Of a DNA stretch of 64,000 bases, positions 2,965 through 63,295 are shown in pieces; position 1 is the first letter of the stretch, and each line of letters opens with the position of its first letter. A program made the translations under genes and the position numbers. This stretch comes from Sedimentisphaerales bacterium. GTDB lineage: Bacteria; Planctomycetota; Phycisphaerae; Sedimentisphaerales; SM23-30. The stretch is from assembly GCA_963666285.1 (NCBI GenBank), contig OY762711.1. The stretch is one strand, 5' to 3'. A model generated the notes under the pieces. It was not told the DNA's origin and searched no databases. It worked only from the letters and a program-made list of their open reading frames with translations.

Positions 2965-5900
2965 TTATTCGCTTCCATTCCTGATAAGTTTTGCATCGAT
3001 CCAGTCACCATGGTCAAATTCATTACCATCATCCAGATCCATCAATACCAGGCGTAGCTCTTTAACGCCCTTGATCTTAAGCTCAATCAGCTGTTTGATA
3101 TTTTCACCAGACATCTCCGGGCTTTCGAACACAAGCTTACCGTCGGCAAACACACGGAACATTACGCTGCCTTTATCGCCAACTTCATCATCCATCCCCA
3201 CATGCCCTGCCAGCCGGTCAAAACTGCCATCTATCGTATAGGTAATCTCAGAATTGGCCTTCACGCCAATACCCTTTTGATATTGATGATCATTTACACT
3301 GATAGCGTGGCCACCGATACTCTTATCATATTTATATTCTCCCTTAACAGAAGCAGGCTCAATATCACTCAGGTAAACAGCCTCCTCAGGCAGCGATGGA
3401 GCATTAACATCCTGGAGAACATTAAATTCAGCGGCAGAAGCAAAACTATTTCCGTTAGTTTCACTGAGTATCTTAATCCTCACATACTCGCCCCACACAG
3501 CAGTGAAATTAACAGTCTGCATCTCTTTGATCTTTTCAAAGCTGCCTTTATAAACCGGTTCGCCAAAATTATCCTTCGTACGGCTGACATATATCTCAAA
3601 GTCTTTGATTGTACCGTTACCCAAATTCTCGCGAGCCATATACTGGAAGCCATTGACTGCATATAAACCATTCAGCCCGATATCAACAATAAACGGATGC
3701 TCGGTTACATCTTTACCGGGCTTTTTGCTGTAATTAGAATGCCATATAGTTTCCAGTGTGCCATCAAACGCATTATTTATGCTTCTATTTTGTTGTGAAT
3801 TAGTTGTTACTGTAAATTCTGACCGGTCGAGCTCATCGGTAACCTCCGGAACGGGGTAATCGTCAGAGGCGGGAATCAGCAGACTCTCATCAATATCCAG
3901 ATGCAGCTTAACAACAGTATCAGTTGAAACCCGGTTAAGTTTGACATGAACAATCCCCCGCCTGTCAGCAGCGTCATAGTACCATCCTGAGACAGCGTTA
4001 GGGTATGCCTGGGGCTCAGTAAGCTCTAACAGAGTCTTATTATCCATTGTAATTGACAGCGGCTTAAGCTCAGAATGAATCTCGAACTCATATACCCTGC
4101 TGGTCAGCTTTCCATCAAAATCACCGATACTCCTGCCAACTACAATATCAATATCGCCAGCCTTGCCTTCAGGTGCATTTACAGTAATAAGCTGCCTGGC
4201 AAACTGCCCCTGCTGATATTTACGAGTCAGGCCATCATCTTCATACATCTCAAACTCAGATTTGCCATACGGGTAAATATCAAATGTCAGAGGATCTTTA
4301 GGTTTCTGGTTATTATAAAGCATCTCCGGGTACATTGGAATGATAGCTCCCGCTTTTACTATCAAAGGCAGTTTTTCGAGCGTGACAGGATAAGCGTCGA
4401 TAGTCCTGGGGCCTTCGACCACCCTGCCATCCCAGTAATCAACCCAGCGACCTTCCGGCAAATAAATATCTTCCTTTCGCCAGCCTTTGTTTATATTCAT
4501 ACTCGTATAAACCGGAGCTACGAGTATCCATTCACCCAGCATATACTGATACTGTGTTGATCTATCCCAGGTTTTCTTATCCTGAGGATAATCCCATATC
4601 ATGCCGCGTACAACCGGAGAACCGGTATCATATGCCTCTCTTGTGTATTTATACATATAAGGCATAAGCCGCATTTTCATTTTGAGGTATTTTCTATTAA
4701 TTGAACGATAAGGCTCATCATAAGACCACGGACTCTTACTGATATGGCTCCATCCGTTCATCGCATATAAGACAGGCGTAAAACACTTCCACTGCAAATC
4801 ACGAGTATATGTTTCACTGCTGCCGCCGAAAATACCATCAACATCAGTTGTTGCATACGCCTGACCAGACATACCGGACCCGATAAGAGTTGGGATATGA
4901 TACCTAATCAAGTCCCATGAACCATATTGGTCTCCCGTCCAGCAGACGGAATATCGTTGCGTGCCGGCCCACCCCTGAACAGTCCAGACAAAACCTCGAC
5001 TGTCAGAATTAGACACCAGCGATTCCCAGGCCTGCTTATTGGCATCCAGCGAAAACTGATATGCCGGCCCGGTCCAGGCAACATCCAGCTTCTGCAGCCT
5101 TGTACCTGCGGTACCGACCTCCCATTTAGTCTTTTCCAGGCCCTTTTCAGTCCAAAGCCCGGTATGAAACCCAAGATCGGCTAAAGAACTGACCACTCGC
5201 GGCAGCTCAACATACCCGCAGCCATAACCGTCGTTTACCAACAGCCAGCCGCCGGGCATATCATATTTACGATATTGCTCCGCAACCCGGTCAATACAAT
5301 CCGGTGTTATCTCGACAAAATTACCATTTTCATCTTTTAACGGCTCCTTGGTCTTTTTGTCACGAGTCATATAGGCGTCAGCCTCACCAAGCTCAAGTGC
5401 CCAGATAGGCACAAAGTTAGGCCTGCCGGTAAACTGGGTGTAAAGATCAATTATCCGGTTGAATGTATCGCCAACAAAATAATAAGCATCAAATCGTTTT
5501 TCCTTATGCTCCAATTTGATTGACATATTGCTAGTAAAGTCATACACACCCGGTGAAAAAGTGTTTCGCAACACACCATAACCCTTATTGCTCATATAAA
5601 ACGGTGCAGGATTAGGATGGCCACCTTCATTCCAGTTTCCATCAGCCCTTATATCTATCCTGGTACCTTTATGAGAAAAATACCCGTTTTGCTGGCCACC
5701 GCCATAATAATATTCATCCAGCCCCGTACTCAAGGTTTGAGCGGTGCTATCACCAAATGTAATCGGCTCAAGTTCCTTAAAAATAAGATTTTTATCGCAA
5801 TCGAAAAGTTCAAAGCTGCAATCGCCCTTTTCCATACGCAAAATCAGCTTGTCTGTGACAAATTCAATATACTTATCTCCATCAGTAATTTTTATATTTT

Positions 5901-6243
5901 TAATGGTATCAATATCATTTATCACAATAGATGCTTTATCAGGATTATTTAACGGATCCCTGGTGTTTCCACCCGGTGCGGCCAGAATACGGAACACGTC
6001 AGGCCTGTAGAATATTACCTGGATCACAATATCATTATCAGTGAATATATCGTATCTGCCAGAAGTGACATTCTGAACAAATTTAATTACATTTCCACAT
6101 TGTAATGTTTGCGTTTTGGGATCATTTCCATCTGCGGCACAAACCGGCAAAATAAAAACACCAAAGCAACACAAAAATGCTATAGATAACCTATGGAAAA
6201 CCATTCTGAGAGAATATTTATTTTTTTGCTGAGTACTTGTCAC
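2965..6243 (-). CDS. Secreted GH31 glycosidase, alpha-N-acetylgalactosaminidase (Nag31)-like, with F5/8-type (CBM32-like) and NPCBM (CBM51-like) modules
   Basis: Signal peptide; nucleophile region MPGGWLLVNDGYGCGY; WTGDQ; DVDGIFGG; C-terminal FDGTLETIWHS and YLSD...GIGVKANS...DHGDWIDA modules. RBS GGAGAGG before the GTG start. Confidence 0.8.
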   Translation of the reverse strand: MTSTQQKNKYSLRMVFHRLSIAFLCCFGVFILPVCAADGNDPKTQTLQCGNVIKFVQNVTSGRYDIFTDNDIVIQVIFYRPDVFRILAAPGGNTRDPLNNPDKASIVINDIDTIKNIKITDGDKYIEFVTDKLILRMEKGDCSFELFDCDKNLIFKELEPITFGDSTAQTLSTGLDEYYYGGGQQNGYFSHKGTRIDIRADGNWNEGGHPNPAPFYMSNKGYGVLRNTFSPGVYDFTSNMSIKLEHKEKRFDAYYFVGDTFNRIIDLYTQFTGRPNFVPIWALELGEADAYMTRDKKTKEPLKDENGNFVEITPDCIDRVAEQYRKYDMPGGWLLVNDGYGCGYVELPRVVSSLADLGFHTGLWTEKGLEKTKWEVGTAGTRLQKLDVAWTGPAYQFSLDANKQAWESLVSNSDSRGFVWTVQGWAGTQRYSVCWTGDQYGSWDLIRYHIPTLIGSGMSGQAYATTDVDGIFGGSSETYTRDLQWKCFTPVLYAMNGWSHISKSPWSYDEPYRSINRKYLKMKMRLMPYMYKYTREAYDTGSPVVRGMIWDYPQDKKTWDRSTQYQYMLGEWILVAPVYTSMNINKGWRKEDIYLPEGRWVDYWDGRVVEGPRTIDAYPVTLEKLPLIVKAGAIIPMYPEMLYNNQKPKDPLTFDIYPYGKSEFEMYEDDGLTRKYQQGQFARQLITVNAPEGKAGDIDIVVGRSIGDFDGKLTSRVYEFEIHSELKPLSITMDNKTLLELTEPQAYPNAVSGWYYDAADRRGIVHVKLNRVSTDTVVKLHLDIDESLLIPASDDYPVPEVTDELDRSEFTVTTNSQQNRSINNAFDGTLETIWHSNYSKKPGKDVTEHPFIVDIGLNGLYAVNGFQYMARENLGNGTIKDFEIYVSRTKDNFGEPVYKGSFEKIKEMQTVNFTAVWGEYVRIKILSETNGNSFASAAEFNVLQDVNAPSLPEEAVYLSDIEPASVKGEYKYDKSIGGHAISVNDHQYQKGIGVKANSEITYTIDGSFDRLAGHVGMDDEVGDKGSVMFRVFADGKLVFESPEMSGENIKQLIELKIKGVKELRLVLMDLDDGNEFDHGDWIDAKLIRNGSE

Positions 6244-6338
6244 GGCCTCTCCATTCTTAAAAAATGTTCATATGCAACATTACAGGCTTAACTAGCTTGA
6301 TAATAGCAGTAACGATATCACAATTAACAATTCCATTC

Positions 6339-6373
6339 AATAGACAGTTGTAATGCCATAATGGATATTTGTA
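6339..6373 (-). promoter_or_regulatory. AraC-type tandem direct-repeat site adjoining the -35 of the GH31 promoter
   Basis: AATAGACAGTTGTA (6339) and AATGGATATTTGTA (6360), 21-bp period. On the minus strand it runs into TTGAAT. Confidence 0.65.
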
Positions 6374-6569
6374 AGTGGTTATGCTGCACCGGTATAAGAG
6401 CAAATTGGCCCCAACTGCCCAACAAAAACGAGTGCCCGACTTAAGTAATTACTGCATATACACTTAGGTATGCAACCAGCGTCTATAAACCACGCACTAT
6501 GGTCCTATAACAAATGAGTGTTTGTAAAACTCAGGATTTCATAAAAAACAGCCAAAATATAAGACTGTT

Positions 6570-6604
6570 TACAATCATCCATTATCTAGTTACTCATATC
6601 TATT
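6570..6604 (+). promoter_or_regulatory. AraC-type tandem site upstream of the GH20 operon
   Basis: TACAATCATCCATT (6570) and TACTCATATCTATT (6591), 21-bp period, overlapping a -35-like TTGCCG. Confidence 0.6.
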
Positions 6605-7065: not shown

Positions 7066-9036
7066 ATGAAAAATTATAAAATATTCAGTTTCGTTGTTTA
7101 CCTGCTATCTATTCTGAACGTACAGTTTTTATCTGATTGTGAAGCACAAATATCCATCATACCAGAACCCACCAAAATGGAGATAAAAACCGGATATTTT
7201 GAAATTAATTCGGCAACATCAATACTTACTACCAGGGAAACTCAATCTCTTGGCGATAAGCTGGTAAAAATACTGGCACCTGCCACCGGGCTAACATTAA
7301 AAACAAAAACCGATACAAATCAGCAAACAAACACAATACAGTTAAAACTGGACAAAAGTCTGGCAACAACAGGCGATGAAGGTTATAGATTAACTGTCAG
7401 CTCCAATACAGTTTTAATAGAAGCGGCGGAAGAGGCCGGTGTGTTTTACGGCATCCAAACGCTTCGCCAGCTGCTACCGGTTGAAATATTTGATAAAAAG
7501 CGAGCGTCAGGTGTAAAATGGCAGATTCCATGTGTTGTGATCGAAGATACCCCCCGCTTTAAATGGCGCGGCATGCATATGGATGTTGGCCGGTATTTCA
7601 TGCCAAAAGACTTTGTAAAAAAATATATAGACCTTCTGGCTATACATAAGATGAATACTTTTCACTGGCACCTCACCGAAGACCAGGGCTGGCGAATAGA
7701 AATTAAAAAATATCCAAAGCTTACCGAAATTGGCGCATGGCGTAAAGAAACCGTTCTGGGCAGAAACACAAACAAGTATGATGGTAAGAAACATGGAGGA
7801 TTTTACACCCAGGCTGAGATTCGAGAGATAGTGGCTTATGCCAAAGAAAGGTATATCACAATTGTACCTGAAATTGAAATGCCCGGGCACAGTGTTGCAG
7901 CTCTTGCCGCATATCCGGAATATTCGTGTACAGGCGGACCGTTTGAGGTAGAGACACGTTGGGGCGTAAAATCAAATGTTTATTGTGCGGGCAACGACAA
8001 GACAATTGAATTTTTGCAGGATATACTGCTTGAAGTACTCGAATTATTCCCAGGCGAATATATTCATATTGGTGGTGATGAATGTCCGAAAAGCCGCTGG
8101 GAAAAATGTCCTAAATGCCAGGCACGCATTAAGGCTGAAGGTCTGAAAAATGAGCATGAACTGCAAAGCTGGTTCATCAAGCAGATGGACACATTTCTGA
8201 CAGAAAGAGGCAGAAGATTGCTCGGCTGGGATGAGATACTAGAAGGCGGCCTGGCACCGGGAGCAACAATCATGTCCTGGCGAGGAGAAAAAGGCGGAAT
8301 CAGTGCCGCCAAAGCCGGTCATGATGTTGTCATGGCCCCGAACAGCTACACATATTTTGACTACTATCAGGCCCAGCCGAATAATGAGCCATTAGCAATC
8401 GGAGGATTTTTGCCAATAGATAAAGTGTATTCTTATAATCCAACTCCATCAGTTTTGTCTGACAAAGAGAAGGAAAGAATACTTGGCGTGCAGGCTCAAC
8501 TCTGGACGGAATATATTCCAACAAGCAGCCATTTAGAGTACATGGCATTTCCAAGGGCATGTGCATTATCTGAGGTAGCCTGGACCAGTAAAGAGAAAAA
8601 AGAATTTTCTGAATTTTACGAGCGATTAAAAACACACTTGAAACGACTCGACTACATTGAAGTAAATTACAGAAAACCTGACCCAATAAAGATTATGCTA
8701 GGCAATTGGAAATCCGGCCAGACCACCGAAGAATTCAAGCCTACTGAATGGGATATCACGTCGCAAATAAATGAACCAGGATTGTACACAATAACGTTTC
8801 AATACACCGGAGGGGCACATCGGTTAGACATTCAAAAAGTCGAACTTCTAAGAGACGGTAAAGTTATAGCTAATGACGAACATACCGGCATTACAGGCAG
8901 CAAAACTGTGGACAACACCTATAAAATAAAATTTGATAAATACAGCAGCTCCAGCAAATACACTCTTCGTGCTGGAATTCGAAGTGATGGGGGAAGCGAT
9001 TCAAACGGGAATATTTATATTTCAAAGCAGGAATGA
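7066..9036 (+). CDS. GH20 beta-N-acetylhexosaminidase
   Basis: Motifs PRFKWRGMHMDVGR, HWHLTEDQGWR, PEIEMPGH, catalytic HIGGDE and LWTEYI. Signal peptide present. Confidence 0.93.
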   Translation: MKNYKIFSFVVYLLSILNVQFLSDCEAQISIIPEPTKMEIKTGYFEINSATSILTTRETQSLGDKLVKILAPATGLTLKTKTDTNQQTNTIQLKLDKSLATTGDEGYRLTVSSNTVLIEAAEEAGVFYGIQTLRQLLPVEIFDKKRASGVKWQIPCVVIEDTPRFKWRGMHMDVGRYFMPKDFVKKYIDLLAIHKMNTFHWHLTEDQGWRIEIKKYPKLTEIGAWRKETVLGRNTNKYDGKKHGGFYTQAEIREIVAYAKERYITIVPEIEMPGHSVAALAAYPEYSCTGGPFEVETRWGVKSNVYCAGNDKTIEFLQDILLEVLELFPGEYIHIGGDECPKSRWEKCPKCQARIKAEGLKNEHELQSWFIKQMDTFLTERGRRLLGWDEILEGGLAPGATIMSWRGEKGGISAAKAGHDVVMAPNSYTYFDYYQAQPNNEPLAIGGFLPIDKVYSYNPTPSVLSDKEKERILGVQAQLWTEYIPTSSHLEYMAFPRACALSEVAWTSKEKKEFSEFYERLKTHLKRLDYIEVNYRKPDPIKIMLGNWKSGQTTEEFKPTEWDITSQINEPGLYTITFQYTGGAHRLDIQKVELLRDGKVIANDEHTGITGSKTVDNTYKIKFDKYSSSSKYTLRAGIRSDGGSDSNGNIYISKQE

Positions 9037-9052: not shown

Positions 9053-10222
9053 GTGAATTATGATTTAAGTCAAATATGCGGTAATTTCCAAATATACGGA
9101 GACTTTGTTTCCGGCATACCTTACGGATCCGGTCATATCAACGATACATTTCTGGTAACATATAACCAGGCCGGCGAGCCGGTTCGATACATTTTGCAAA
9201 GAATTAATCATTATGTATTTAAAAATACAAAAGGATTAATGGAGAACATAGCAAGAGTAACCAAGCATATAACTAAAAAGCTAATTGCAGAGGGTTTAGA
9301 AGATGTTACTCGAAGAGTATTGACCCTGGTCGAAACTACTGATGATTTGCCATATTTTATAGATAACGATGGTAATACGTGGCGTGTATACCTTTTTATA
9401 GAAAATGCACAAACATATGATATATTGACATCAAACAGTCATGCCAAAATGGCAGCAAAAGCGTTTGGCCAATTCCAGGAACAGCTGGCAGACCTGGACC
9501 AGACAGAAAACCCACTTATTGAGACAATTCCCAACTTCCATAATGGTCCCTGGAGATACCAGATGTTTTTGGAAGCCCTGGAAAATGATTCATGCAACCG
9601 GGCAGTATCAGCAAAACCAGAAATCGATTTCCTAAATGAAAATGCTGGTTTATTTGATATATTCCCCCAGTTAATCGAAGCCGGTAAGATACCTATCCGT
9701 ATCACCCATAACGATACCAAAATCAATAATATCATGATTGACGATGTAACGGGTGAGGCAGTTTGCGTAATTGACCTCGATACCGTTATGCCGGGACTGG
9801 CTCTTTATGACTTTGGCGATATTGTCCGAACGACCTCCTCAGCGAGTGCAGAAGACGAGCCGGATCTAAGTAAGGTATATGCGCAACTTCCTCGATTCAA
9901 TGCAGTAGTAGACGGATATTTGGCCAGTGCCGGGAAATTTCTGAACCAGGTAGAGAAAGATCATTTAGTCCACTCCGGAAAGCTAATTACACTGATGATA
10001 GGTACCCGATTTTTGACTGATTACCTCTGTGGGGACCAGTATTTCAAGGTTCATCGTGAAGGTCATAATCTTGATCGTTGCCGAACACAGTTCAAACTGG
10101 TCCAATCTATCATCGATCAGCAGGAAGAAATGGAAAAATGTGTTGAATCTTTCGGTCAAAGTTCTATACTTGAAACAAATAGAAATAAGCAGAAAATAAA
10201 TAATAGTTCAATTATTAAGTAA
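9053..10222 (+). CDS. APH-fold phosphotransferase, N-acetylhexosamine 1-kinase (NahK/LnpB)-like
   Basis: Motifs GSGHINDTF, YILQRIN, THNDTKINN, IDLDTVMPG and YDFGD. Start moved to GTG 9053 (RBS GGAGGA); the ORF track starts at 8933, inside GH20. Confidence 0.75.
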   Translation: MNYDLSQICGNFQIYGDFVSGIPYGSGHINDTFLVTYNQAGEPVRYILQRINHYVFKNTKGLMENIARVTKHITKKLIAEGLEDVTRRVLTLVETTDDLPYFIDNDGNTWRVYLFIENAQTYDILTSNSHAKMAAKAFGQFQEQLADLDQTENPLIETIPNFHNGPWRYQMFLEALENDSCNRAVSAKPEIDFLNENAGLFDIFPQLIEAGKIPIRITHNDTKINNIMIDDVTGEAVCVIDLDTVMPGLALYDFGDIVRTTSSASAEDEPDLSKVYAQLPRFNAVVDGYLASAGKFLNQVEKDHLVHSGKLITLMIGTRFLTDYLCGDQYFKVHREGHNLDRCRTQFKLVQSIIDQQEEMEKCVESFGQSSILETNRNKQKINNSSIIK

Positions 10223-12808: not shown

Positions 12809-13477
12809 ATGAAAAAAAACTATAAAGTGGTCAAATGCACTCAAAGCAATACTATTGATGCTGACTGGAGCAAACCTTTCTGGCAGGACATTGACTCTGC
12901 GGAAATCTGTCTATCTCACTGGCCGGTGCAAACCGAACACCAGCCTGAGACAAAAGTAAAAATTCAATACGACAATGACTATATATATGTTATCTTTCAT
13001 GTGAAAGATTGTTATATCAGATCAGTAGCCTCAGAGGTTAATGATGATGTCTGGAAGGACAGCTGTGTGGAATTTTTCTTCTCGCCCAGCCCAGGCAATC
13101 CTGACATTTATATCAACCTGGAAGCAAACTGCTGCGGGGTAATACTAGCTCAGCGGCATACCGGCCCGCGTCAAAACAGCCGTTTTTTTGATATCGAAGA
13201 TTGCACGAATATTCAAATTGCCACTACTTTTACCGAACCGATATATAAGGAAATAACCACCCCTACCGAATGGACCCTGGAATACGCGGTTCCATTTGAC
13301 CTGATAGCAAAATATACAGATATTTCCCGCCCAGAATCCGGCGTTAAATGGAATGCCAATTTCTATAAATGCGCTGATGACTGTTCTTATCCTCACTGGA
13401 TTACATGGTCTCCTATTGCCACAAAACAGCCAGATTTCCATCAGCCGGGATATTTTGGTATTTTAGAATTTTCTTGA
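12809..13477 (+). CDS. Carbohydrate-binding family 9-like protein
   Basis: Motifs [23 protein letters not shown] and [10 protein letters not shown]. No signal peptide. Confidence 0.7.
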
Positions 13478-49834: not shown

Positions 49835-49865
49835 GTATTATATGACAGGCTCTTAATATTATTAT

Positions 49866-53456: not shown

Positions 53457-56400
53457 TTATTTTTTAACCAGCGCAAACGCTGACACCATTAAATTTGGTC
53501 CTGACTTACATGAAGCCTTCAGTACCAACCGATTATCAAGCAAATCCTCTCGCAGCACATTCAGTTTTACCCACATACCATCTCCGTTATGCTTACCAAG
53601 TTCAAACTCTCGACCTTCAAAGTTGATAAAACCTGTTCGTCCGTTATTATTCCAGTCATGAAAATGCACATACAGGTCATACATATCAGGTTTACTACTT
53701 TCAATCTCTAAAGCTAGAGATGGAGAACCCCACCAGGCTGAAGATATACTATCCTTCCAAACTGCACCACAATCAACCTTATAGTTGAAACCATCATCGG
53801 CCTGAACCAAATCGACTTTGCGGTTCCAGTCAACATTGCCTTTACCCAGAGGATAAGCTCCCGCACGAACATACATCACTGCATTCTCAAATTCTTTCGG
53901 CACCTTCACCTTGGTTAATTCTTCGACAACCGGAAAATATTCCCTGAACTTATCATGGCTGATTTCAAATCCAGGTATAAAACTACCGCCTCCGACATAA
54001 CTAAACAGACTTTTCCTGAGCTGCCGTGCTGCCGGACGCTTATCCAGGCCATCCACAATATTATACCCGCAAACCAGCAGTTTGCCGCCCTTTGCGGTCT
54101 TAAATTCAAATATTGAACCCAGCTTATGATTAAAATGAAAATCGCTTACAGGCTGTACAATAGGCAGATACTCTCCTGGCTGATCATCAAGCACAAAACC
54201 ACGGGCGTCAGTACATATCTGCTTCCATTGCCAGTCGAGATGATCATCAGTAGGAAATTCAGCCATCGCGGCGTGCTTTGACTGTACCAATGCTCCCAGG
54301 GTATCACGGTTCTGACCTGGGAAAAATCTGGACGACCAGAACAACGGCATCCAGGCAGCATGCTTACTACTGCCAAATTTATGCCCCAGCAGTATCACTC
54401 GCTTACCTTTATCTAATTCCGCCCAGGCCTGTTCAGGATCATCTGTCACTATCAAATCACCTGCCGCTTCTGCAACCACTTCATCTGGGAATACCCATAT
54501 GTCCCAGCAATTTCTGAATGCTGTTTGCTCCAGTTCAACCTCAAGCTTCAACTTAGCCGGCTTATCGATAGCGTCCAATAAATATGTTATCTTTTCTACA
54601 TCCGTTACCTTACCAACACCAAAACTCATCATATCAGATTTACCATCTTTCAGTATGTTACGAGAATCATCTATCAGCTTCCAGCTCACCGTAGAATCTA
54701 AAGCCTTTGCACCCCAATGCGAAACCTGTACCAGCACATTAAACTCTTCACTGCTTGTCCAGACAAACTTATCAAATCTCGCCAGCGGAACTGTTGTATT
54801 GCTGTACTGACGAAAGAATTCCGGTGTTACAATACCTTTGCTCTCATAAAACGTATCCAGCCAGCCGACCAGTGCCTCACCCTGACCCGGAAAATCCTGC
54901 ATACTCAGCCAGCTGACGCCTGCACACCCTTCCGAACGCAGCAAAGCCTCCATTTCATTCTTATATATTATCCGGTTCATCGCACCGGAAGCCATCTGTA
55001 AATCGGTACTCTGATGTTCAATCCCGTTTTTTCTGGCCATTTCACGAAATATCGAAAAATTAGTCGCCGCTAACGGTCCGGCGTACTTATCGATCTCATT
55101 CCAGTCCGGATACACCGGCATCTGCCCCGCTTCATGGGCAATTATCGGCACCGGGGCCCGCCCGTAATTCTTCTGATAATCCCAGTTGGTATGATCAACT
55201 CCCAGCCGATTCACCACCGAACCAATTCCAGGAATATTATGAGTATCTGAAAAGTCATCATACGGCGTTATTGTCCGTGCTGTTGAGGCGGCATATAAAC
55301 GACGTGGATCACGCTCCTTCTCTTCCCTTATCCATTCACCAATAACCTCGAAATCACTAGAACCAAGCTCATTACCAATAGCAAAGAAACAGAACGAAGG
55401 ATGGTTACCATATCTATCCAGCATACGTTTCATCTCAGCCCGAGTGTATTCATCGATTGTCCGGTCCGCTTTCCCAACACCTTTCGGATACCCCGGAGTA
55501 TCCATATCCTTACGCTTGTTCGGCCCTCCCATCCACCTGTCGACCCAAAGTACTTCCGGCTCCAGGTACATACCCATCTCATCTGCCGCGATAAACGCCG
55601 CCTCAGGCGGACACCAGGAATGGAAACGGATCTGATTCAAGCCATACTCCCGGCAAACTTTATATACTCTGGACCAACCTTCAACCGTCATCGGCGGATG
55701 ACCCGTCAGCGGATACTGGCCGCAATCCAGGTTGCCGCGCATAAATGACGGCCGTCCATTTATTATCAGCTTATTCCCATCATCGGCGATCGTACGAAAT
55801 CCAAACCTTATCTGCCTGGTATCATTATGCCCATTACTTATAAATGTCAGATTTGCCGTATAAAGATTTGGAGAAAACTCATCCCATTGATCCGGCTCAT
55901 CTTTTAACCGAACTACAATTCTTGCGATCTTTTCCTTAGAACAAAACTCCTGGAGCAAAACAACACAATCTGCAATTATTTTGCCAGACTTCTCTACTAT
56001 ATCAACCGACAGCTTTCCACCTGTTGTAATTCCTGTATCATTTATTATCTCCGCCTCAAATTCTACCTTTCTTCCTTCTGCATCTGGAAATAAACGCACC
56101 ACTCCCAGCCTTGTCGGAGCCAATGCCCGCATCTCCAATCGCCCCACAATACCATTCCATTTACTCTGGGTAAACTCAGTATAGCAGTGACCCCGGTCGC
56201 CAATCGGATGAATCATCCTGTTGTCTACTCTGACCGTCAGCAAATGCCTGCCGGGTTTCAATGCATCAGAATAATGAACATGTGGGGTCCCAAGTGAATC
56301 CTTAGCTCCGCAGAAATTATCATCTATCCATACCCTGCTCTCCCACAATACACGTTCCAGTGTCAGTTCAATACTCTTATCGTTCCAACTTTCCGGTATG

Positions 56401-56702
56401 TCAATATAACGTTGATACCATGCAGCACCAATATACTTATGTTTACGGGTAAGATAGCCGGGATTAGGATTCTCTTCTCTAATGCCAATTCCGGCAAGAT
56501 CAGTCGTACCAGGCAAGGAAATAATACCATCATTATCAAACTCACCATGATACCAATTCTGTTTTATTCCTTCATCCTCAGAATCCAGCTTGTACTTCCA
56601 ATTTCCGGAAATATCTATAACATCCCCACCTTTGACAAATGAAAAGCACAAACATAATAAAAGTAAGATTAAATATTTTATATAATTACACATAATCGAC
56701 AT
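53457..56702 (-). CDS. GH2-family glycoside hydrolase (large, secreted)
   Basis: GAAWYQR, WNGIVG, WDEFSPNLY, IRFHSWCPPEAAF, GNHPSF..GNE, IAHE. Confidence 0.8.
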   Translation of the reverse strand: MSIMCNYIKYLILLLLCLCFSFVKGGDVIDISGNWKYKLDSEDEGIKQNWYHGEFDNDGIISLPGTTDLAGIGIREENPNPGYLTRKHKYIGAAWYQRYIDIPESWNDKSIELTLERVLWESRVWIDDNFCGAKDSLGTPHVHYSDALKPGRHLLTVRVDNRMIHPIGDRGHCYTEFTQSKWNGIVGRLEMRALAPTRLGVVRLFPDAEGRKVEFEAEIINDTGITTGGKLSVDIVEKSGKIIADCVVLLQEFCSKEKIARIVVRLKDEPDQWDEFSPNLYTANLTFISNGHNDTRQIRFGFRTIADDGNKLIINGRPSFMRGNLDCGQYPLTGHPPMTVEGWSRVYKVCREYGLNQIRFHSWCPPEAAFIAADEMGMYLEPEVLWVDRWMGGPNKRKDMDTPGYPKGVGKADRTIDEYTRAEMKRMLDRYGNHPSFCFFAIGNELGSSDFEVIGEWIREEKERDPRRLYAASTARTITPYDDFSDTHNIPGIGSVVNRLGVDHTNWDYQKNYGRAPVPIIAHEAGQMPVYPDWNEIDKYAGPLAATNFSIFREMARKNGIEHQSTDLQMASGAMNRIIYKNEMEALLRSEGCAGVSWLSMQDFPGQGEALVGWLDTFYESKGIVTPEFFRQYSNTTVPLARFDKFVWTSSEEFNVLVQVSHWGAKALDSTVSWKLIDDSRNILKDGKSDMMSFGVGKVTDVEKITYLLDAIDKPAKLKLEVELEQTAFRNCWDIWVFPDEVVAEAAGDLIVTDDPEQAWAELDKGKRVILLGHKFGSSKHAAWMPLFWSSRFFPGQNRDTLGALVQSKHAAMAEFPTDDHLDWQWKQICTDARGFVLDDQPGEYLPIVQPVSDFHFNHKLGSIFEFKTAKGGKLLVCGYNIVDGLDKRPAARQLRKSLFSYVGGGSFIPGFEISHDKFREYFPVVEELTKVKVPKEFENAVMYVRAGAYPLGKGNVDWNRKVDLVQADDGFNYKVDCGAVWKDSISSAWWGSPSLALEIESSKPDMYDLYVHFHDWNNNGRTGFINFEGREFELGKHNGDGMWVKLNVLREDLLDNRLVLKASCKSGPNLMVSAFALVKK

Positions 56703-56713: not shown

Positions 56714-58189
56714 TCAACATACAGAATTCACCCAGGGATCGTTGTATTGGACCAGCTTCTTATCGAGGATTTTTCGCAACTTTAGAACCAGTTGCTGCTC
56801 ATTATTTGCGACGTTCTCCAGTTGGTATGGATCTTTAACATTATTATGCAGGAAAACCTCCTCAGATTTGCCCTTTGTTTTGCTAACAACAAAAGTGTAC
56901 ATGGAGTTTCGTATGCCGCGTCGGCCCCACTCCGATTTACCATCATCTGCCCACATATACCATTGCCATTCCGGGCGGGTACCTGATCCTGTGAGGAATT
57001 GGTGAGCATAGCTTTTACCGTCCACTGCGTCTGGAATATCAGATTTAAACCCGGCCAAATCCAACATTGTTGGACAAATATCCATACCAGAAAACAACAG
57101 GCTGTCTTTACGAGGTTCGATCCTGCCCGGCCATCGAATTAAAAACGGTATTCTCATAGATTCTTCATAGTGATTATTCTTGGAAATCTCGTCGTGAATT
57201 CCAAGGCAGTTACCGTGATCTGAGGTAAAGATTACGATAGTATCCTGCTCGAGGTTTTGTTCCTTTAATGCAGCAAGAATCCGGCCAAACTGTTCGTCTA
57301 CCCCTGTAATCATAGCATAATAATGCTTTATATTATTGCGATAATATTTGCCAAACCTGGTATCAGCATCCGGTATATTAAGCCGAGAACAAAGCTCTTC
57401 CAGAGGCTTGTCCTTATAAGAATTAACGTATTTTTGAGGAACCAGCTTATAGGGCATATGCGGCGGATTCATAGAGACCACAAGAGCAAACGGTTTACCG
57501 GCAGCTCGATAATTTCCACCATCATTATTAATGTATTTTATCGCCAAATCGGCTTCATGTTCCGGTGACCATTGATCGACATAACTAAATTCATCTCGGG
57601 AAACATCGGTGCTCCAATACATAGGTCGGTTGTGCTGGTCATATGTACCATAAGCATACCAGAAATCGAAACCGTGACGGCGGTTTGGCGGACACCACTC
57701 GTTCCAGGCAAATTTTTCACTGTTATTACTACACTTGATATAAGGTTTGTGCGGTGAATCCAGATGCCATTTGCCGATATAGCCAAGACTATAACCTTTA
57801 CTTTTAAATACATCAGACCAGCATCGGTCGGTTTCCTGCAGCTCACAATCATATGGGGCACTGCCGGTATTGCAGTTACCGGTAACCTTATTGGCATGCG
57901 GGTAGCGGCCGGTCATAAGCATGGCACGAAACGGACTGCATACCGGATAATTGCTGACCGCCTGTGGAAGCACCAGCGATTCTGCGGCGAAACTATCCAA
58001 ATTCGGCGTAAGTACCGGTTCCTCACCCAAAAAGCCCATCGCCTGACCTCGCATCTGGTCAGGAAATACAAATACAATATTCGGGGCATTTTTCCTGCCA
58101 TTACTATAAAAGTCAACATTATCCTGGCAACCGTTCATGGTAGCTGCTGCAGTTAAGCCTACTGCCTTAAGAAAGTCTCGACGATCCAT
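56714..58189 (-). CDS. Cys-type S1 sulfatase, Tat-exported
   Basis: MDRRDFLK Tat motif; CSPFR; GKWHL; FTSDHG. Confidence 0.9.
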   Translation of the reverse strand: MDRRDFLKAVGLTAAATMNGCQDNVDFYSNGRKNAPNIVFVFPDQMRGQAMGFLGEEPVLTPNLDSFAAESLVLPQAVSNYPVCSPFRAMLMTGRYPHANKVTGNCNTGSAPYDCELQETDRCWSDVFKSKGYSLGYIGKWHLDSPHKPYIKCSNNSEKFAWNEWCPPNRRHGFDFWYAYGTYDQHNRPMYWSTDVSRDEFSYVDQWSPEHEADLAIKYINNDGGNYRAAGKPFALVVSMNPPHMPYKLVPQKYVNSYKDKPLEELCSRLNIPDADTRFGKYYRNNIKHYYAMITGVDEQFGRILAALKEQNLEQDTIVIFTSDHGNCLGIHDEISKNNHYEESMRIPFLIRWPGRIEPRKDSLLFSGMDICPTMLDLAGFKSDIPDAVDGKSYAHQFLTGSGTRPEWQWYMWADDGKSEWGRRGIRNSMYTFVVSKTKGKSEEVFLHNNVKDPYQLENVANNEQQLVLKLRKILDKKLVQYNDPWVNSVC

Positions 58190-58278: not shown

Positions 58279-59061
58279 TTATTTATAAATTGGAGAACCA
58301 TCATCTCTGGTTCGTTCGCCAGTACATTTAAAGGTTTTATGCCACTTAAGTGCCCAAAGATTCTTAAGTTCTACAGGACGCTGAGAACCATCAACAAAAC
58401 CAACATTAATTTTACCGTCATGCCGATCTATTAGATATCTGCTCATTCCGCCGGCTGATGTTGTATCACTACCCAAAAGGTTAAATCCTGCCGGACAGGA
58501 ATCAGTATCTTCCACTTTTGAGTCAAGCCATTTTGAGTCAGCAAAAACCGGAGTTAAACTGGTCATCTTTACCTGGCTATAATCTTTATATTTCTTTAAT
58601 GGATCAAGGCTGTTTAAATTAGAATAGAACCAACCATTGATGGAATAACAACCTTCTTCTGCTATATCCATGCCGTCCCAATACCAAACCCAGCTTTTCT
58701 TTGCAGTTCCATATTGGTAACTCTTAATATCTTCCATTTTTTCCAACCTGGCCTTGGTCCTGTGGCACATACGGGCTTCATCAATTTCATCCATATATTT
58801 TGTGAGTTTATTCACCCATAATCCAGATCCATAACTATACTCCGGCATTTTTCCTTCATTAGCTTCCGTATACATAATGGAAGCAAGCTGCATAGTTTTA
58901 AGATTAGTAAGACACATTACATCTTTAGCACTGTTTCTGGCTTTGCTCAATGCCGGCATAAGTATAGAAACAAGTAATGCAATAATAGATATAACGACCA
59001 GCAGCTCTATTAGAGTAAAAGCTTTAGCGATTTGATTACGTTTGGAATTCATTTTCGGCAC
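58279..59061 (-). CDS. Prepilin-type N-terminal cleavage/methylation protein with H-X9-DG motif (DUF1559-like)
   Basis: [36 protein letters not shown]-terminal [13 protein letters not shown]. Confidence 0.88.
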
Positions 59062-59207: not shown

Positions 59208-62200
59208 TTATTTGCCGTCAATCCAATTATAGGCAAATATCTGCAAATCAGAAAAGTCAACATTTCTATCGTTATTTAGATCACATCCACCACATAATGG
59301 ATAGTCTCCACATTCTTTTATCTGCCACATTGACGCAAAGTTCGCAAAATCTTCTAAACCCATATCCCCCCAATAAAGATTATGTACTGTAACATCAACA
59401 TCAACAAGACTAACACCTTCCAGTGCATCAACAATTTGTATCGTTAACTGTTCAGTACCAATATCTGATGAGCCAGGAATACCTGAAATAATACCACCAG
59501 ATGTGATATCCATCCAGGCAGGTCCGGAAACTTTGCTGAACAAAAGTGGGTCACCTTCCGGATCGGATACAAGAGAAGTAATAACTGCATGATAATCTAT
59601 CCCTTCAAGACCATCATCTATATCAAATGGATCAGCAATCTTTGGCAGAGAATTTATCTTTTGGCGACCTAAATCATATATATCAGCTATCTCATTTGAT
59701 TCAAGTGAGCGTTTCCAAACAGTAACTTCATCTGCATAACCTTTGAAAGATCTATATGAATAGTCACGCCCAAGATATGTTATACCATCAAACTCTTCTA
59801 TATCGTGTGAAACATTATTAACCACACTTTTATCATTTACATAAAGAGTTGCTTTGGAAGGTTCGATTACCAATGCTATAAATGTCCACTCATTGTCTGG
59901 TATATCAAGGTTTGAAACAAAATTATAAGAACCGGCACTTCCATTCCAATGATAACCTAACTGGTTGGTAGTACCTTTGAAATTCATTCCGGCGGTCGTC
60001 GATCCTGCCCTGGAAAATAAGATGCCAGCATAACTTTGTTGACTTCCACTTCGTTTTATCCAGGCTGTCATTGTTACTGTATTGGAATCAAGATTGAGCG
60101 GAGGAATCTCGACATAGTTACCAGCGCCCCCGCAATATACAGACTGACCGACATAACCTGCCAGACCAAGTTTAGCATTGATATTAGAAGAATCATATTT
60201 ATCCGGACCAGACATGTCTTTAATCGCATTTCCGGTACGATGATCATCATCAAATGTATAAAAGGCGACCAACTCTTTGCCAGTTACAGAAACTTTGATA
60301 TTACCTGAAAAAGTATTATTATACCCATTTTTTACGGTATATGGAATCGTAGCCTCTCCTTCAAAACCGGCTTCAGAAGTAAATGTCCAGGTTCCATTTC
60401 CATTACTTACAACAGCACCATTAGTCGGAGTACCTATTGAAACCAAAAACTTGCTCCCCTGGAAACTGTAATCATTTACAGAAGGATCGGTGATTACAAC
60501 AGAACCGCCAGAGGGCACACTATATGAATCTGCAATTACCTCAAGCATGTTCCATTCAGGTAAATCGTTAAGACTGCTGATCGCTGAGCTGCTGACACCA
60601 AAGTCCCAATCAACAAAGAACGGGCTAAGGTCGTAACCAACCTGCCTGGAGAACCTAGTCATAAACTGATCCCATTCCTGCTGATCAGTAGCAGGAAGAG
60701 CCGATGGATTGGAAACTTCATCATCCAGATATGTCTGAAAAGTAGCTTTGAACGCCTCCCAGCCAAAGATCTCCTTTAGCTGAACATACATATCAAGCCG
60801 TTCGCCAAGACCTGTTTCATCGAATCCACCTGCTGAAACTGCTGCTTCAAACATTTCGACTCGTCTGGAAGGGTTCCACATACGACTCCAGCCGTCAGAA
60901 GCCTTACCGGAATCACAAACAGATTCGATAGCTGCCATAGTAAATATATTAACGGTAACCTCGCCGGTTCGACCGTCAGTCCAGTATCCGCTCTGATGCA
61001 GATGTCCAGTCTCATGATACGCCCCCCAGCATCCGCCGGCTTCCATAGCGTCATAATCGCCAAAGTCCCACCCCCAACCGCCAATGGGGTATCCGGCATA
61101 TCCGCTTCCCCAGGCTGTCTGTACCATACTGTACATTCTCATCGGGCGGGTTCTCTTGCCGGTCAGATTAGCAAGATCATCCTGGGCGGCAATGCCATCG
61201 TGCCAGAATGTCATAAGCTCTTCCGGCTTTGCGAGATCGATTATGTCAGTTTTAGGCACAGAAATAATCATATTTCCGCTTATCAGTTCTCCATAAGGTG
61301 CCGGTTTATCTCGTAAGGTATTAATCCAGTCTGCATTTGTATGATATCCCAGGACAAAAATCGGAGCCTCTATTGCATTTGAAATTGTAACACTGAAATC
61401 TCCGGGCACAGTATTCCTTGGCACAATGATATAAATAAGACCACCATAAGGATTACCAACAGAAACACTTGCCTGATCCAGAGAAAATTCCGTACTCGTG
61501 CCAAATGGCATACGGAGATACGAACCGCGACTGCTGACATCGTTCCAGTCACCATTTATCTTTGCTTTCAGACCATCGACGGTTAAAGATGAAGGAACAC
61601 TAATTGTCACAATCTCACCGGGAACTGCATACAAACCGGTACTCAGCCATATTACACTATCATTGCCACGAGTATCCCTGCCTTTCTGGCTAACATTATA
61701 ACTTCTTGTGATCGAAACTCTTGGGGCATCAGAAGGAATAACACCGTAGACAGGTACAGCTGACCTGTGAGCAGTCATTTGTTCAACCGGGGTATTTTGC
61801 AGTATCGAACATTCTCGTCTCAATAAAGCCTTGTCAAATGAATCTGAAACCGGATTGGAAGGAGAAGGTATTATACTGTTTATACGTTCATAAAACTTTT
61901 CGTCAAGTCTTGCCAGGAGATTATCACCTTCTTTAAGAACATCGAACATTCTACCCATCACAGTTCCACCGATATCTAAATTAGTTGAGCTGTAGCCGGA
62001 TGAATCATCTAGCATCTTTATCACATCTTCAGCTGTTGTCTGGCCTGACGAACGACTTATACTCAGACTGCCGCCGCCTTCATTAGCAAAGCCAATACCC
62101 GCCTGACGTAATATCCTGTTCCCAGGTGCATTTTTTATACCGGTACCGGTCCACCACATAATATAACCCGGACCATAATCAGCCAGAAATAATGCACCGC

Positions 62201-63020
62201 CATTCCTGGCAAATTCAACAATAGCATCAACATCGCTCTGTGAAATACTCGAACCAAGCCAGCCAACAAGAACATCAGCATCAGCAAGAACAGAAGAATA
62301 ATTTGTACTTTTTACAACATTGCTGTATCCCTGGTCAGCCAGCCAGACGTCAGCGTTATTGTATGCATTATTTGGCACAACTATCTTTATTGATTTACTT
62401 GAGGTGCCGGTAAGCCATTCAAGCGCATTCATATAAAATACACCATTATCTGCTGAGTCACCATAACTGTTCATATTTAACCATTGATGGTCAGGCATAG
62501 CCAGCACACGCCCGGCACCTAATGTTGATGCCGCAACTATCGGATCAGACCGGTTTTCACCTCCATAATTTCCAATACTGAAAGCTGTAGGACCGTATGC
62601 TACACAGCCGCTTGCCCCACTTGGATCTGCCAGGATACTCACACCACTTAATATAACTGTCCGGGCTGTTTCAACATCAAAATTTGCATTTACACTGATA
62701 CTGACAATTCCAGTATCAGTTGCAGTACCATCAGTAACAGTATATGTAAAATAGTCAAGACCAACAAAACCAGACTTAGGATTATATACCAGAGTTCCGT
62801 CGCCATTAGCAGAGACTGTACCTCCTTGCTCAGAAGAATGATCAAAAGATTGCAATTGCAGCTGATCACCATCGACATCAACATCATTAACTAATGGGTA
62901 ACATATTCTCCACGAATCCTGTGCAGTTATGTGCAAATCATCAACAGCCTCAGGGGCCGCAGCTGAAAGCCCTCCGCAAAAGAATATTTGCAAAACTAGT
63001 ATTATATAAAACTTATTCAT
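59208..63020 (-). CDS. Secreted M60-family (enhancin/mucinase-like) metallopeptidase with Ig-like, LamG and dockerin-like domains
   Basis: WLSTGLYAVPGE; YGGLIYI; APYGEL; WGAYHETGHLHQ...GEVTVNIF (HEXXH...E); C-terminal DLNNDRNVDFSDLQIFAYNW. Confidence 0.88.
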   Translation of the reverse strand: MNKFYIILVLQIFFCGGLSAAAPEAVDDLHITAQDSWRICYPLVNDVDVDGDQLQLQSFDHSSEQGGTVSANGDGTLVYNPKSGFVGLDYFTYTVTDGTATDTGIVSISVNANFDVETARTVILSGVSILADPSGASGCVAYGPTAFSIGNYGGENRSDPIVAASTLGAGRVLAMPDHQWLNMNSYGDSADNGVFYMNALEWLTGTSSKSIKIVVPNNAYNNADVWLADQGYSNVVKSTNYSSVLADADVLVGWLGSSISQSDVDAIVEFARNGGALFLADYGPGYIMWWTGTGIKNAPGNRILRQAGIGFANEGGGSLSISRSSGQTTAEDVIKMLDDSSGYSSTNLDIGGTVMGRMFDVLKEGDNLLARLDEKFYERINSIIPSPSNPVSDSFDKALLRRECSILQNTPVEQMTAHRSAVPVYGVIPSDAPRVSITRSYNVSQKGRDTRGNDSVIWLSTGLYAVPGEIVTISVPSSLTVDGLKAKINGDWNDVSSRGSYLRMPFGTSTEFSLDQASVSVGNPYGGLIYIIVPRNTVPGDFSVTISNAIEAPIFVLGYHTNADWINTLRDKPAPYGELISGNMIISVPKTDIIDLAKPEELMTFWHDGIAAQDDLANLTGKRTRPMRMYSMVQTAWGSGYAGYPIGGWGWDFGDYDAMEAGGCWGAYHETGHLHQSGYWTDGRTGEVTVNIFTMAAIESVCDSGKASDGWSRMWNPSRRVEMFEAAVSAGGFDETGLGERLDMYVQLKEIFGWEAFKATFQTYLDDEVSNPSALPATDQQEWDQFMTRFSRQVGYDLSPFFVDWDFGVSSSAISSLNDLPEWNMLEVIADSYSVPSGGSVVITDPSVNDYSFQGSKFLVSIGTPTNGAVVSNGNGTWTFTSEAGFEGEATIPYTVKNGYNNTFSGNIKVSVTGKELVAFYTFDDDHRTGNAIKDMSGPDKYDSSNINAKLGLAGYVGQSVYCGGAGNYVEIPPLNLDSNTVTMTAWIKRSGSQQSYAGILFSRAGSTTAGMNFKGTTNQLGYHWNGSAGSYNFVSNLDIPDNEWTFIALVIEPSKATLYVNDKSVVNNVSHDIEEFDGITYLGRDYSYRSFKGYADEVTVWKRSLESNEIADIYDLGRQKINSLPKIADPFDIDDGLEGIDYHAVITSLVSDPEGDPLLFSKVSGPAWMDITSGGIISGIPGSSDIGTEQLTIQIVDALEGVSLVDVDVTVHNLYWGDMGLEDFANFASMWQIKECGDYPLCGGCDLNNDRNVDFSDLQIFAYNWIDGK

Positions 63021-63260
63021 TTTGAACCTTTATTACTCTTTTCGCTCTCTCTTGAACATCTAAAAAGATTTTAATACTTAAGAAATACTTAAAATATTTC
63101 CACTCTCTAAAAACATATAAATTTCACTAATAATTATATACTTCATGTCTCTTGACATTCTTCAAGCATCATTATTTTAATCAAATAGATTCATTTAAAT
63201 ATAATAAGACAAGATATTTACTTTCATAATTTATTATACTAAACAAGTTGAATATTAAAC

Positions 63261-63295
63261 AATAGACATATGTAATTAAACAATGTACATATGTA
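63261..63295 (-). promoter_or_regulatory. AraC-type tandem site upstream of the M60 gene
   Basis: AATAGACATATGTA (63261) and AATGTACATATGTA (63282), 21-bp period. On the minus strand it continues into TTGTTT-18bp-TATAAT. Confidence 0.7.

Follow-up and report, generated by a model that had tools for sequence, protein, structure and literature searches.

Among the described systems closest to the locus reported here is BT4240-50 of Bacteroides thetaiotaomicron, which acts on core 1 and Tn O-glycoproteins and in which BT4240, an N-acetylgalactosamine (GalNAc) 1-kinase of the APH family, is encoded together with GH109 and M60 enzymes; the alpha-GalNAcase is the GH109 enzyme, helped by the GH31 enzyme BT3169, and the kinase also serves chondroitin (PMC11992087). 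The present locus was found in a 64-kb stretch of DNA from a Sedimentisphaerales bacterium (contig positions 3456001-3520000, hereafter the window), whose genome, coded G000, is 6.35 Mb in size with 41% GC and is 97% complete. Five gene units in this window, each led by a copy of a 35-letter direct repeat, are probably the core of a regulon under AraC control, which would respond to N-acetylhexosamine (HexNAc) and is predicted to forage mucin-type (O-GalNAc) glycoproteins, using the threonine of their backbone as well as their sugars. Like BT4240-50, the window encodes an APH-family kinase, an alpha-GalNAcase, GH2 enzymes, an M60 peptidase and an inner-membrane transporter. Unlike BT4240-50, it has no SusC/D genes, it combines AraC with a direct-repeat operator spread over scattered units, and its predicted regulon includes an epimerase, a nucleotidyltransferase, a lower pathway free of nagA and nagB, tdh-kbl, and prepilin and LamG genes.

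Other described systems share parts of this set. In the chitin pathway of Thermococcus, a PIG-L deacetylase (Dac) and a SIS-family glucosamine-6-phosphate deaminase (GlmD) are used instead of NagA and NagB. PIG-L and SIS proteins are likewise paired in one operon of the window, but here they are joined by a GATase1-like protein and a pyrophosphate (PPi)-type phosphofructokinase (PFK), and the GlmD match is far below cut-off. The MUL1 and MUL2 loci of Akkermansia, which belongs to the Planctomycetes-Verrucomicrobia-Chlamydiae (PVC) superphylum, resemble the window by description in their pilin-like proteins for mucin or glycan attachment and in their GH31_18, GH20, GH29, GH2 and sulfatase genes (PMC13174399), whereas MUL2 is a locus of PilM and archaeal-type pilins and the window has planctomycete prepilin-type N-methylation and LamG/Ig proteins; relative to these loci, the link from a regulator to catabolic operons is also new here. 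The galacto-N-biose/lacto-N-biose (GNB/LNB) pathway of Bifidobacterium (NahK-GalT-GalE) uses a comparable route for GalNAc, through a HexNAc 1-kinase, a uridylyltransferase and a 4-epimerase (PMC6668579), but neither a GNB phosphorylase nor an ABC transporter was seen in the window, where uptake would be by a sodium:solute symporter (SSS) and the nucleotidyltransferase is of another family. For planctomycetes, mucin is described as enriching Pirellulales (PMC11929135), and the 'fishing rod' hypothesis proposes that pilin-like proteins bind polysaccharides for periplasmic uptake (PMC12078418, citing Boedeker 2017). As presented in that source the hypothesis names no substrate-specific pilin genes, whereas in G000 a shared motif connects 4 of the 51 prepilin-type genes with a single class of substrate.

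Genes were taken from open reading frame (ORF) lists, 36 window proteins were annotated using Pfam and NCBIfam, and 160 related genomes, given codes of the form G###, were used for comparison. The motif was learned by expectation maximization from 12 AraC-flanking promoters of these relatives, with the G000 sequence excluded. It was present in all 12 training promoters, with a log-likelihood of 166 compared with 59-69 in three shuffles (width 22), and can be written TTAC-N5-TCCAT-N7-TTAC-N5-TCTAT, a 21-bp direct repeat with the period typical of AraC sites. The relatives-only matrix gave 16 matches above 19 bits in G000, while the maximum in 2 Mb of shuffled DNA was 13.4 bits; searched as a fixed pattern, the motif gave five matches in the window against 0.01 expected (100 shuffles). 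Two intragenic matches were dropped, one at a LacZ-type GH2 gene (contig position 1359393, 21.3 bits), where it lies inside the signal-peptide coding sequence, and one at contig position 3589420 (19.2 bits), and one site that scored 17.0 bits, located ahead of an S1_20-like sulfatase gene, was included on visual inspection. A matrix retrained on the resulting 15 sites showed a clean gap from 39.9 to 17.9 bits and revealed no additional full site. Six of the 15 sites are located within 80 kb (binomial P 1.8e-8), an interval that comprises the window and its right-hand continuation and is referred to here as the island.

The five sites in the window face the GH31 gene (6340..6374, minus strand, 0 mismatches, 26.7 bits), the GH20 operon, of which the site lies approximately 460 bp upstream (6569..6603, plus strand, 0 mismatches, 19.7 bits), the epimerase gene (21689..21723, minus strand, 2 mismatches), the deacetylase operon (39790..39824, plus strand, 0 mismatches, 26.4 bits) and the M60 run (63262..63296, minus strand, 1 mismatch, 23.8 bits). 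The sixth precedes a gene for a 970-aa LamG protein that starts just past the window. The site facing the epimerase is directly before the start of the AraC-family gene (21730..22629, plus strand; PF12833/PF02311), the proposed master regulator, and is placed as in relatives. AraC orthologs were found in 34 of the 160 relatives, and the motif adjoins 15 of 16 further AraC genes, some of them from congeners of the training genomes. Seventeen pattern matches were counted in five AraC-carrying genomes, as opposed to one in five genomes lacking an AraC ortholog. The direct repeat is thus found beside the regulator and before its targets and tracks the regulator across genomes, as in an AraC regulon, and is likely the binding site of the AraC protein encoded beside one of its copies.

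The other nine targets in the genome are a GH29 gene, a GH109 gene with a sulfatase, the S1_20-like sulfatase, a trypsin-like peptidase, three prepilin-type genes, a LamG gene and a Gfo/Idh/MocA gene 707 bp away from its site. In G017, nine sites lead GH109, DUF3472, four prepilin-type and three LamG/PA14 surface genes. GH123 is among the motif targets of G015, where only one of the three pattern matches precedes a glycan gene and the other two probably arose by chance. In G161, G017 and G145, the gene immediately following the motif encodes DUF3472 (with DUF5077), a candidate HexNAc-related enzyme.

Transcription units were drawn from gene gaps and motif positions. Between positions 2965 and 63020, 33 genes were counted, of which 19 belong to the five motif-led units: GH31 alone; GH20-kinase-SSS-CBM9-tdh-kbl; epimerase-nucleotidyltransferase, with AraC; deacetylase-GATase1-like-PFK-SIS; and M60-prepilin-S1_27-GH2-S1_20. 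The last gap of the M60 run, between GH2 and S1_20, is 239 bp, making the membership of S1_20 less sure.

Glycosidase and sulfatase subfamilies were assigned by best PDB hit. The GH31 gene (2965..6243, minus strand) encodes a Nag31-type enzyme, a putative alpha-N-acetylgalactosaminidase with a signal peptide and F5/8 and NPCBM domains. It is closest to the E. faecalis GH31 enzyme 6M76/7F7Q (389 bits, compared with 204 for the next family member), keeps the catalytic motifs KLDVAW and WTGDQ, and is the sole Nag31-type copy in the genome. Its nearest neighbour and its catalytic Asp motifs place it in GH31_18, and it is predicted to release alpha-GalNAc; GH31_18 enzymes strip alpha-GalNAc from peptide (bioRxiv 10.1101/2024.03.27.586211). 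The GH20 beta-hexosaminidase (7066..9036, plus strand; PF00728, E 1.5e-126) has 58-65% identical copies within relatives' operons. In the M60 run, the GH2 gene (53457..56702, minus strand) encodes a BT4151-like beta-galactosidase (NF049890, 742 bits, below the cut-off of 1500), and a 36% identical relative of it is located between tdh and kbl in G017. The S1_27-like sulfatase of this run (56714..58189, minus strand) is of the 4-sulfated GalNAc type, with best PDB hits 2QZU and 6J66, a chondroitin 4-O-endosulfatase. The S1_20 sulfatase (51784..53217, minus strand; best PDB hit 7ANA, 414 bits) is BT1622-like, of the type acting on 3-sulfated (3S) Gal/GalNAc, and 66-68% identical copies are found within operons of G145 and G149. 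It shows the BT1622-type C-Q-x-x-A-H motif, with His for the axial O4, and does not have the GalNAc-excluding Glu/Arg pair: Q162 and H166 are kept, and L302 and G322 are found where BT1636 has its Gal-selecting Glu and Arg (alignment read by eye). BT1622's own Asn and Cys are not kept. BT1622 itself prefers 3S-GalNAc, and the S1_15 enzyme BT1624 acts on 6-sulfated (6S) Gal/GalNAc; both were inactive on colonic mucin O-glycans in the same study (10.1101/2020.11.20.392076).

The second and third motif-led units carry genes for the uptake and activation of HexNAc. The APH-family kinase (9056..10222, plus strand; PF01636), in an ORF of 8933-10222 with a likely GTG start at 9056, is cytoplasmic, lies in a HexNAc operon and belongs to the same family as BT4240; from family and context it is likely an N-acetylhexosamine 1-kinase. 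It is followed by the SSS gene (10286..12802, plus strand; PF00474), which likely serves HexNAc uptake and whose N-terminal part is 83-92% identical in 17 of the 160 relatives, and by a gene for a CBM9-like cytoplasmic protein (12809..13477, plus strand; PF16011) that follows the SSS gene in relatives too. On the opposite strand, the UDP-hexose/HexNAc 4-epimerase (20275..21189, minus strand; PF01370) has 62-67% identical copies adjoining the kinase in relatives, and the sugar-1-phosphate nucleotidyltransferase (19434..20282, minus strand; PF00483) is just 22-24% like the enzyme of relatives' operons.

The fourth unit (39913..43864, plus strand) consists of the genes for the PIG-L deacetylase, the GATase1-like protein, the PPi-type PFK and the SIS protein. 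No canonical nagA or nagB was found above cut-off in the genome, the best matches being 22 bits of 225.65 for TIGR00221 and 26 bits of 236.9 for TIGR00502, and this operon likely replaces them. It shows weak NCBIfam matches to GlmD (E 1.4e-7) and NagB-II, far below the cut-offs. In relatives, an 800-aa protein encoded in the corresponding operons resembles NagB/PIG-L fusions (ESM Atlas, a lead only). Direct homology between this protein and the deacetylase was considered and rejected, as only the PHxDD motif aligns (E 0.089), and the equivalence of the two would therefore be functional and rests on the Atlas lead. Action of the deacetylase on GlcNAc-1-P is disfavoured, since 8 of 14 genomes with the deacetylase do not have the kinase. 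In G036, G030 and G034 the PIG-L gene is located downstream of mur genes, which suggests a role in cell-wall amino-sugar recycling.

Genes for the protein part of the substrate are found in two of the units. The M60-like gluzincin peptidase (59208..63020, minus strand), with Ig and LamG domains, matches PF13402 (E 1.6e-49) and PF17291, is present in a single copy and has an intact zinc motif (HETGH...E) in agreement with the M60-like definition HEXXHX(8,28)E (PMC3267712); it also gave weak SslE and ImpA profile matches, under cut-off. The tdh gene for L-threonine 3-dehydrogenase (13491..14537, plus strand; NF003808, 561 bits with a cut-off of 380) is a single copy and is followed by kbl for glycine C-acetyltransferase (14632..15849, plus strand; TIGR01822, 665 bits with a cut-off of 493). 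Next to the M60 gene is one for a prepilin-type protein with an N-methylation motif (58279..59061, minus strand; PF07963, TIGR02532). Only the end of the 970-aa LamG protein lies in the window (63579..64000, minus strand); its own motif is at approximately 66830 in window coordinates, and in G161 and G149 it forms a pair with the ortholog of M60. A total of 51 prepilin-type genes and 185 proteins with a dockerin-like tail were counted among 4477 ORFs using self-built patterns and a profile, and there were 13 matches to PilB/PilT/GspE-type ATPases. The LamG, ECF, FecR and prepilin genes of the window have 28-39 paralogs each in the genome, so that surface genes are uninformative by presence alone; the motif, on the other hand, leads units holding 4 of the 51 prepilin-type genes. 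The dockerin-like tail, found on the proteins at 32629-36963 and 59208-63020, may be a lineage-wide anchoring or sorting signal.

Comparison with the relatives revealed a recurrent operon opposite the AraC ortholog, with genes for GH109, the 800-aa protein, nucleotidyltransferase, GH20, kinase, epimerase, SSS and CBM9, which was found with variations in G017, G029, G040, G093 and G099. Relatives swap parts, with GH109 for GH31 and the NagB/PIG-L-like fusion for the deacetylase operon. In G145 the window-type deacetylase-GATase1-like-PFK-SIS genes replace the 800-aa protein in the same operon and are followed by SSS, CBM9 and a 66% identical S1_20, so that kinase, epimerase, deacetylase operon, SSS and S1_20 are united in one run. 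In G029 the order behind the motif is GH109-GH20-kinase-epimerase-SSS-CBM9-tdh-kbl-metzincin-M60-GH2, the GH2 being LacZ-type, and the run continues with a sialidase-like gene, a prepilin gene and LamG genes. A metzincin and an M60 gene follow kbl in both G029 and G141, the M60 not being alignable with that of the window.

tdh was present in 46 of the 160 relatives. In the 25 tdh neighbourhoods examined, it lay in this operon in six (G017, G029, G040, G141, G149 and G161) and beside GH29/GH2 genes in one (G099). M60 was found in 25 relatives, 16 of them with tdh, while 30 of the other 135 have tdh (Fisher 6.7e-5, for kin that are not independent). Nag31 orthologs occur in four relatives, all of which also have the long M60 (present in 5 of 160), tdh and a close SSS. 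With queries from the window, tdh, M60 and Nag31 were all without a match in the congeners G001 and G003. Horizontal transfer of the core from family f6 was considered and rejected, as the SSS tree groups G000 with congener G001 (93/95) and is otherwise unresolved; the tdh tree (FastTree) nests f1 among f6 sequences, and no donor is claimed.

The remaining 14 of the 33 genes are free of the motif, even when the matrix retrained on this genome's sites is applied down to 4 bits. The initial annotation had treated positions 2965..63295 as a single candidate system of approximately 60 kb; what was found is a mosaic, in which the motif-free genes form a pair of S1_15 and S1_30 sulfatases, an eight-gene block with an extracytoplasmic function (ECF) sigma factor and a four-gene IclR block. 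The ECF and IclR blocks carry their own regulators, and all three are proposed to be neighbouring modules under other control. In the ECF block, a FecR-type anti-sigma factor and an ECF sigma factor (37032..39334, minus strand; PF04773, TIGR02989), with short intergenic gaps, are likely separate regulators of the block at 22865-39334. Its GH29 alpha-fucosidase (22865..24334, minus strand) has best PDB hits 6HZY/2WVT (559 bits), which we take to be BT2970. The second GH2 enzyme (27347..29827, minus strand; PDB hits 3FN9, 8DHE and 6MVG) is of the beta-glucuronidase type, with NHKG at 575, the NxKG motif being a mark of glucuronidases. Between them is a 952-aa glycosidase-like protein (24467..27325, minus strand) with no Pfam family and a GH36/clan GH-D fold: its AlphaFold model (pLDDT 87) matched GH36 alpha-galactosidases by Foldseek (E 8e-20) at approximately 10% identity and with no family hit. 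This protein has at least 577 homologs, with E688, D690 and D738 invariant, is present in 26 of the 160 relatives, and is a candidate for a new family of clan GH-D glycosidases. The block also encodes two LamG/Ig surface proteins with dockerin-like C-termini (32629..36963, minus strand; PF13385; 34-35 paralogs each) and a secreted metzincin with Ig and CBM96 domains (29970..32522, minus strand; HELGHNFGCAD). The best peptidase match of the metzincin family profile is CpaA 6O38 (E 8e-5, weak), and CpaA is an O-glycoprotease (PMC7542363). This family has the motif HExxHxxGxxD; the Met-turn position is occupied by Asn in 4 of 19 homologs as well as in the window copy, and one Anaerohalosphaera genome has at least 10 homologs.

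The sulfatase pair begins 372 bp past the nucleotidyltransferase gene, and read-through is possible. S1_15 (17502..19061, minus strand) is of the 6S-Gal/GalNAc type, with best PDB hit 6S20, a GalNAc-6-O-sulfatase, and S1_30 (15893..17386, minus strand) is closest to S1_30A, 9IHK (436 bits compared with 150). S1_15 and S1_27 are described from chondroitin loci, and characterised S1_30 enzymes take 2-O-sulfate off carrageenan oligomers (10.64898/2026.05.19.726164). The IclR block (44070..51299, minus strand) encodes IclR, a cupin with no Pfam hit, a 1321-aa protein with PA14 that is hydrazine-synthase-alpha (HZS-alpha)-like and formylglycine-generating enzyme (FGE)-like, and a cytochrome c with a beta-propeller, which is similar to hydrazine synthase beta-gamma. 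Further HZS-alpha-like genes in the genome are located near GH2, GH16 and sulfatase genes.

All of the parts listed in the initial annotation were present, at the positions given above, as judged by Pfam, NCBIfam and motif checks, and eight genes had been omitted from it, namely AraC, the ECF sigma/FecR pair, the 952-aa GH36-like protein and the IclR-cupin-HZS-alpha-like-cytochrome c block. Its report of no SusC/D pair also held, as no TonB receptor or SusD family was found among the 36 window proteins. This absence is a genome-wide trait and not special to the window, because SusD gave zero matches in the whole 97%-complete genome and the five TonB receptors are all elsewhere. The locus does not have the adjacent SusC and SusD genes that define a polysaccharide utilization locus (PUL) of Bacteroidota; with its co-located carbohydrate-active enzymes (CAZymes), sulfatases and peptidases and a dedicated regulator it would work like a PUL but is no member of that class. 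All four S1 sulfatases keep an intact CxPxR, and the window, with 4 of the genome's 26 sulfatase loci, is its densest 64 kb, a clustering beyond chance, if only borderline so (P=0.049) against uniform placement. tRNA and Rfam scans of the window gave no matches, and in a promoter and terminator scan of 5900-25000 the terminators were near shuffle level and uninformative. Named homologs of window proteins come from Phycisphaerae, including Anaerohalosphaera. On either side of the window, 58 flanking proteins were scanned. The left 60 kb (30 proteins) contain mostly housekeeping and mobile genes, with one beta-helix protein as the sole possible carbohydrate enzyme, and the island is bounded on this side by the DDE transposase of an insertion sequence (1051-2343), whose opposite-strand frame has eight paralogs, of which the best three matches are 100% identical. 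On the right side, approximately 18 kb beyond the window still belong to the island; they carry genes for LamG proteins, another SSS, GH92 and a LacI-type protein, after which comes pnp. The stretch with the GH92 mannosidase, the second SSS and the LacI-type gene (contig positions 3519001-3539000) is possibly an N-glycan or mannoside module.

By itself, the enzyme list is centred on GalNAc yet mixed. S1_30 (carrageenan 2-O-sulfate), S1_27 (chondroitin 4-O-sulfate) and the NxKG GH2 point away from the initial annotation's mucin assignment, and the sulfatases are by best PDB hit not a mucin-only set. The proposed O-glycoprotein target and the joint use of sugar and threonine are supported by the shared operator-like motif and the synteny of relatives. 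Several further observations weigh against an O-glycoprotein regulon. No motif was found at relatives' long-M60 loci or at the four Nag31 loci, so that membership of M60 and Nag31 is seen only in G000, and two of the window sites lie 460-500 bp from the first gene. PDB matches of the M60 protein at E<0.001 are B. anthracis 4FCA/5EV7 alone, with no characterised O-glycopeptidase, and among eukaryotic proteins a TCAF protein is the nearest homolog. No sialidase was found in the window, and four BNR-type genes elsewhere in the genome are not motif-led. The tdh copies that are linked are not independent, because all fall in one subclade, and in 18 of the 25 relatives examined tdh is unlinked to such genes. 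This last point would also suit a regulon that is a general HexNAc-scavenging hub, fed by chondroitin/dermatan-type glycans, invertebrate glycoconjugates and cell-wall amino sugars, with mucin-type protein as one input at most and tdh-kbl as a passenger. The best matches of S1_27, which lies inside the M60 run, and of S1_15 are chondroitin enzymes, the island has a glucuronidase-type GH2, GH123 is a motif target in G015, and BT4240, to which the kinase is related, is needed on chondroitin (PMC11992087). Part of the regulon is indeed best seen as generic amino-sugar salvage, because 8 of the 14 relatives with the deacetylase lack the kinase, and in three relatives the deacetylase gene is next to mur genes. 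As an account of the whole regulon, however, such a hub is unlikely: the motif leads genes for two peptidases and for two unrelated alpha-GalNAcases (GH31 and GH109), the 36 window proteins gave no match to a lyase or GH88 family, the glucuronidase-type GH2 is motif-free, and M60 follows tdh-kbl in G029 and G141. The GalNAc of chondroitin, moreover, is beta-linked.

A single O-glycoprotein system regulated jointly over all 60-80 kb, in line with the initial annotation and with the ECF and IclR blocks induced by the same substrate via other signals or read-through, is an improbable extension of the regulon. Distant metzincin homologs (23-24%) end relatives' operons, in G161 the deacetylase operon has a GH36-like ortholog 8 kb away, genes related to those for IclR and cytochrome c are near the SSS gene in G015, and no clear terminator was seen between the nucleotidyltransferase and S1_15 genes in a scan near shuffle level; the 14 motif-free genes and the separate regulators of their blocks argue the other way, and the full arrangement was found in none of the relatives examined. 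A cluster for algal sulfated polysaccharides such as carrageenan, fucoidan or ulvan would agree with the carrageenan activity of S1_30 enzymes (10.64898/2026.05.19.726164), with the ability of GH29 enzymes to act on fucoidan (PMC11929135) and with the CBM96 domains, but would leave the alpha-GalNAcase, the HexNAc pathway, the peptidases and tdh-kbl unexplained, and no GH16, GH82, GH107, GH127, GH167 or lyase family was found among window proteins. We consider it very improbable for the cluster; it could hold for the S1_30 gene alone. It is hardly credible that the window is just any piece of a genome rich in CAZymes and that its genes have no function in common, as the many paralogs of the LamG, ECF/FecR and prepilin genes and the borderline sulfatase clustering might suggest, since the motif, its controls and the recurring operons contradict it.

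The O-glycoprotein regulon would work as follows, on the basis of protein families and gene context and with the gene identities, the motif, its distribution and the synteny as the observed part. AraC would bind the motif and sense a HexNAc. Binding of the glycoprotein would fall to surface proteins of the prepilin and LamG types, M60, possibly with the trypsin-like target encoded elsewhere in the genome, would cut its backbone, the S1_20 and S1_27 sulfatases, GH29, GH2 and GH20 would trim the glycan, and GH31 and GH109 would free the core GalNAc from Thr/Ser. After import of HexNAc by the SSS symporter, GalNAc would enter the GlcNAc series through the BT4240-like kinase, the nucleotidyltransferase and the 4-epimerase. 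The absent nagA/nagB would be replaced by the PIG-L deacetylase, the SIS deaminase and PFK, which would supply glycolysis. Tdh and Kbl would turn the freed threonine into glycine and acetyl-CoA. As for the capture by pilin and LamG proteins put forward in the initial annotation, such genes belong to the regulon by motif, while capture itself is still inferred and prepilin-type genes are common. It is conceivable, though we lean against it, that the motif-led prepilin and LamG proteins are a substrate-specific apparatus for capture and import standing in for SusC/D, which one AraC couples to complete O-glycoprotein use, with the glycan passing through a new route independent of NagA/NagB (PIG-L deacetylase, GATase1-like protein, SIS deaminase and PPi-PFK) and the backbone through an uncharacterised M60 lineage and Tdh-Kbl.

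No description of this regulon was found in the literature searched; supplementary CAZyme-cluster tables for Planctomycetota, which were outside the search, could list the locus. It is an open question by what means large glycans enter planctomycete cells in the absence of SusC/D, and the pilin-like genes of these bacteria are numerous and have no assigned substrate. What is chiefly gained is a connection, open to testing, of particular pilin-like genes with an AraC operator and with the catabolism of O-glycoproteins: the operator singles out 4 of the 51 prepilin-type genes here, as well as four in G017, and ties them to O-glycoprotein enzymes, an idea that can be tested gene by gene. The locus also offers candidate enzymes, namely an M60 resembling TCAF proteins, a metzincin family similar to CpaA, a family with the GH36 fold for which Pfam has no model, and a likely replacement for nagA/nagB. 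The regulon further suggests a fate for the peptide backbone, which is left unknown in the account of BT4240-50 (PMC11992087), and mucin-type foraging would extend from gut bacteria to an environmental lineage of Phycisphaerae. If the capture reading is true, operator mapping would assign substrates to dozens of orphan pilin-like genes in planctomycetes.

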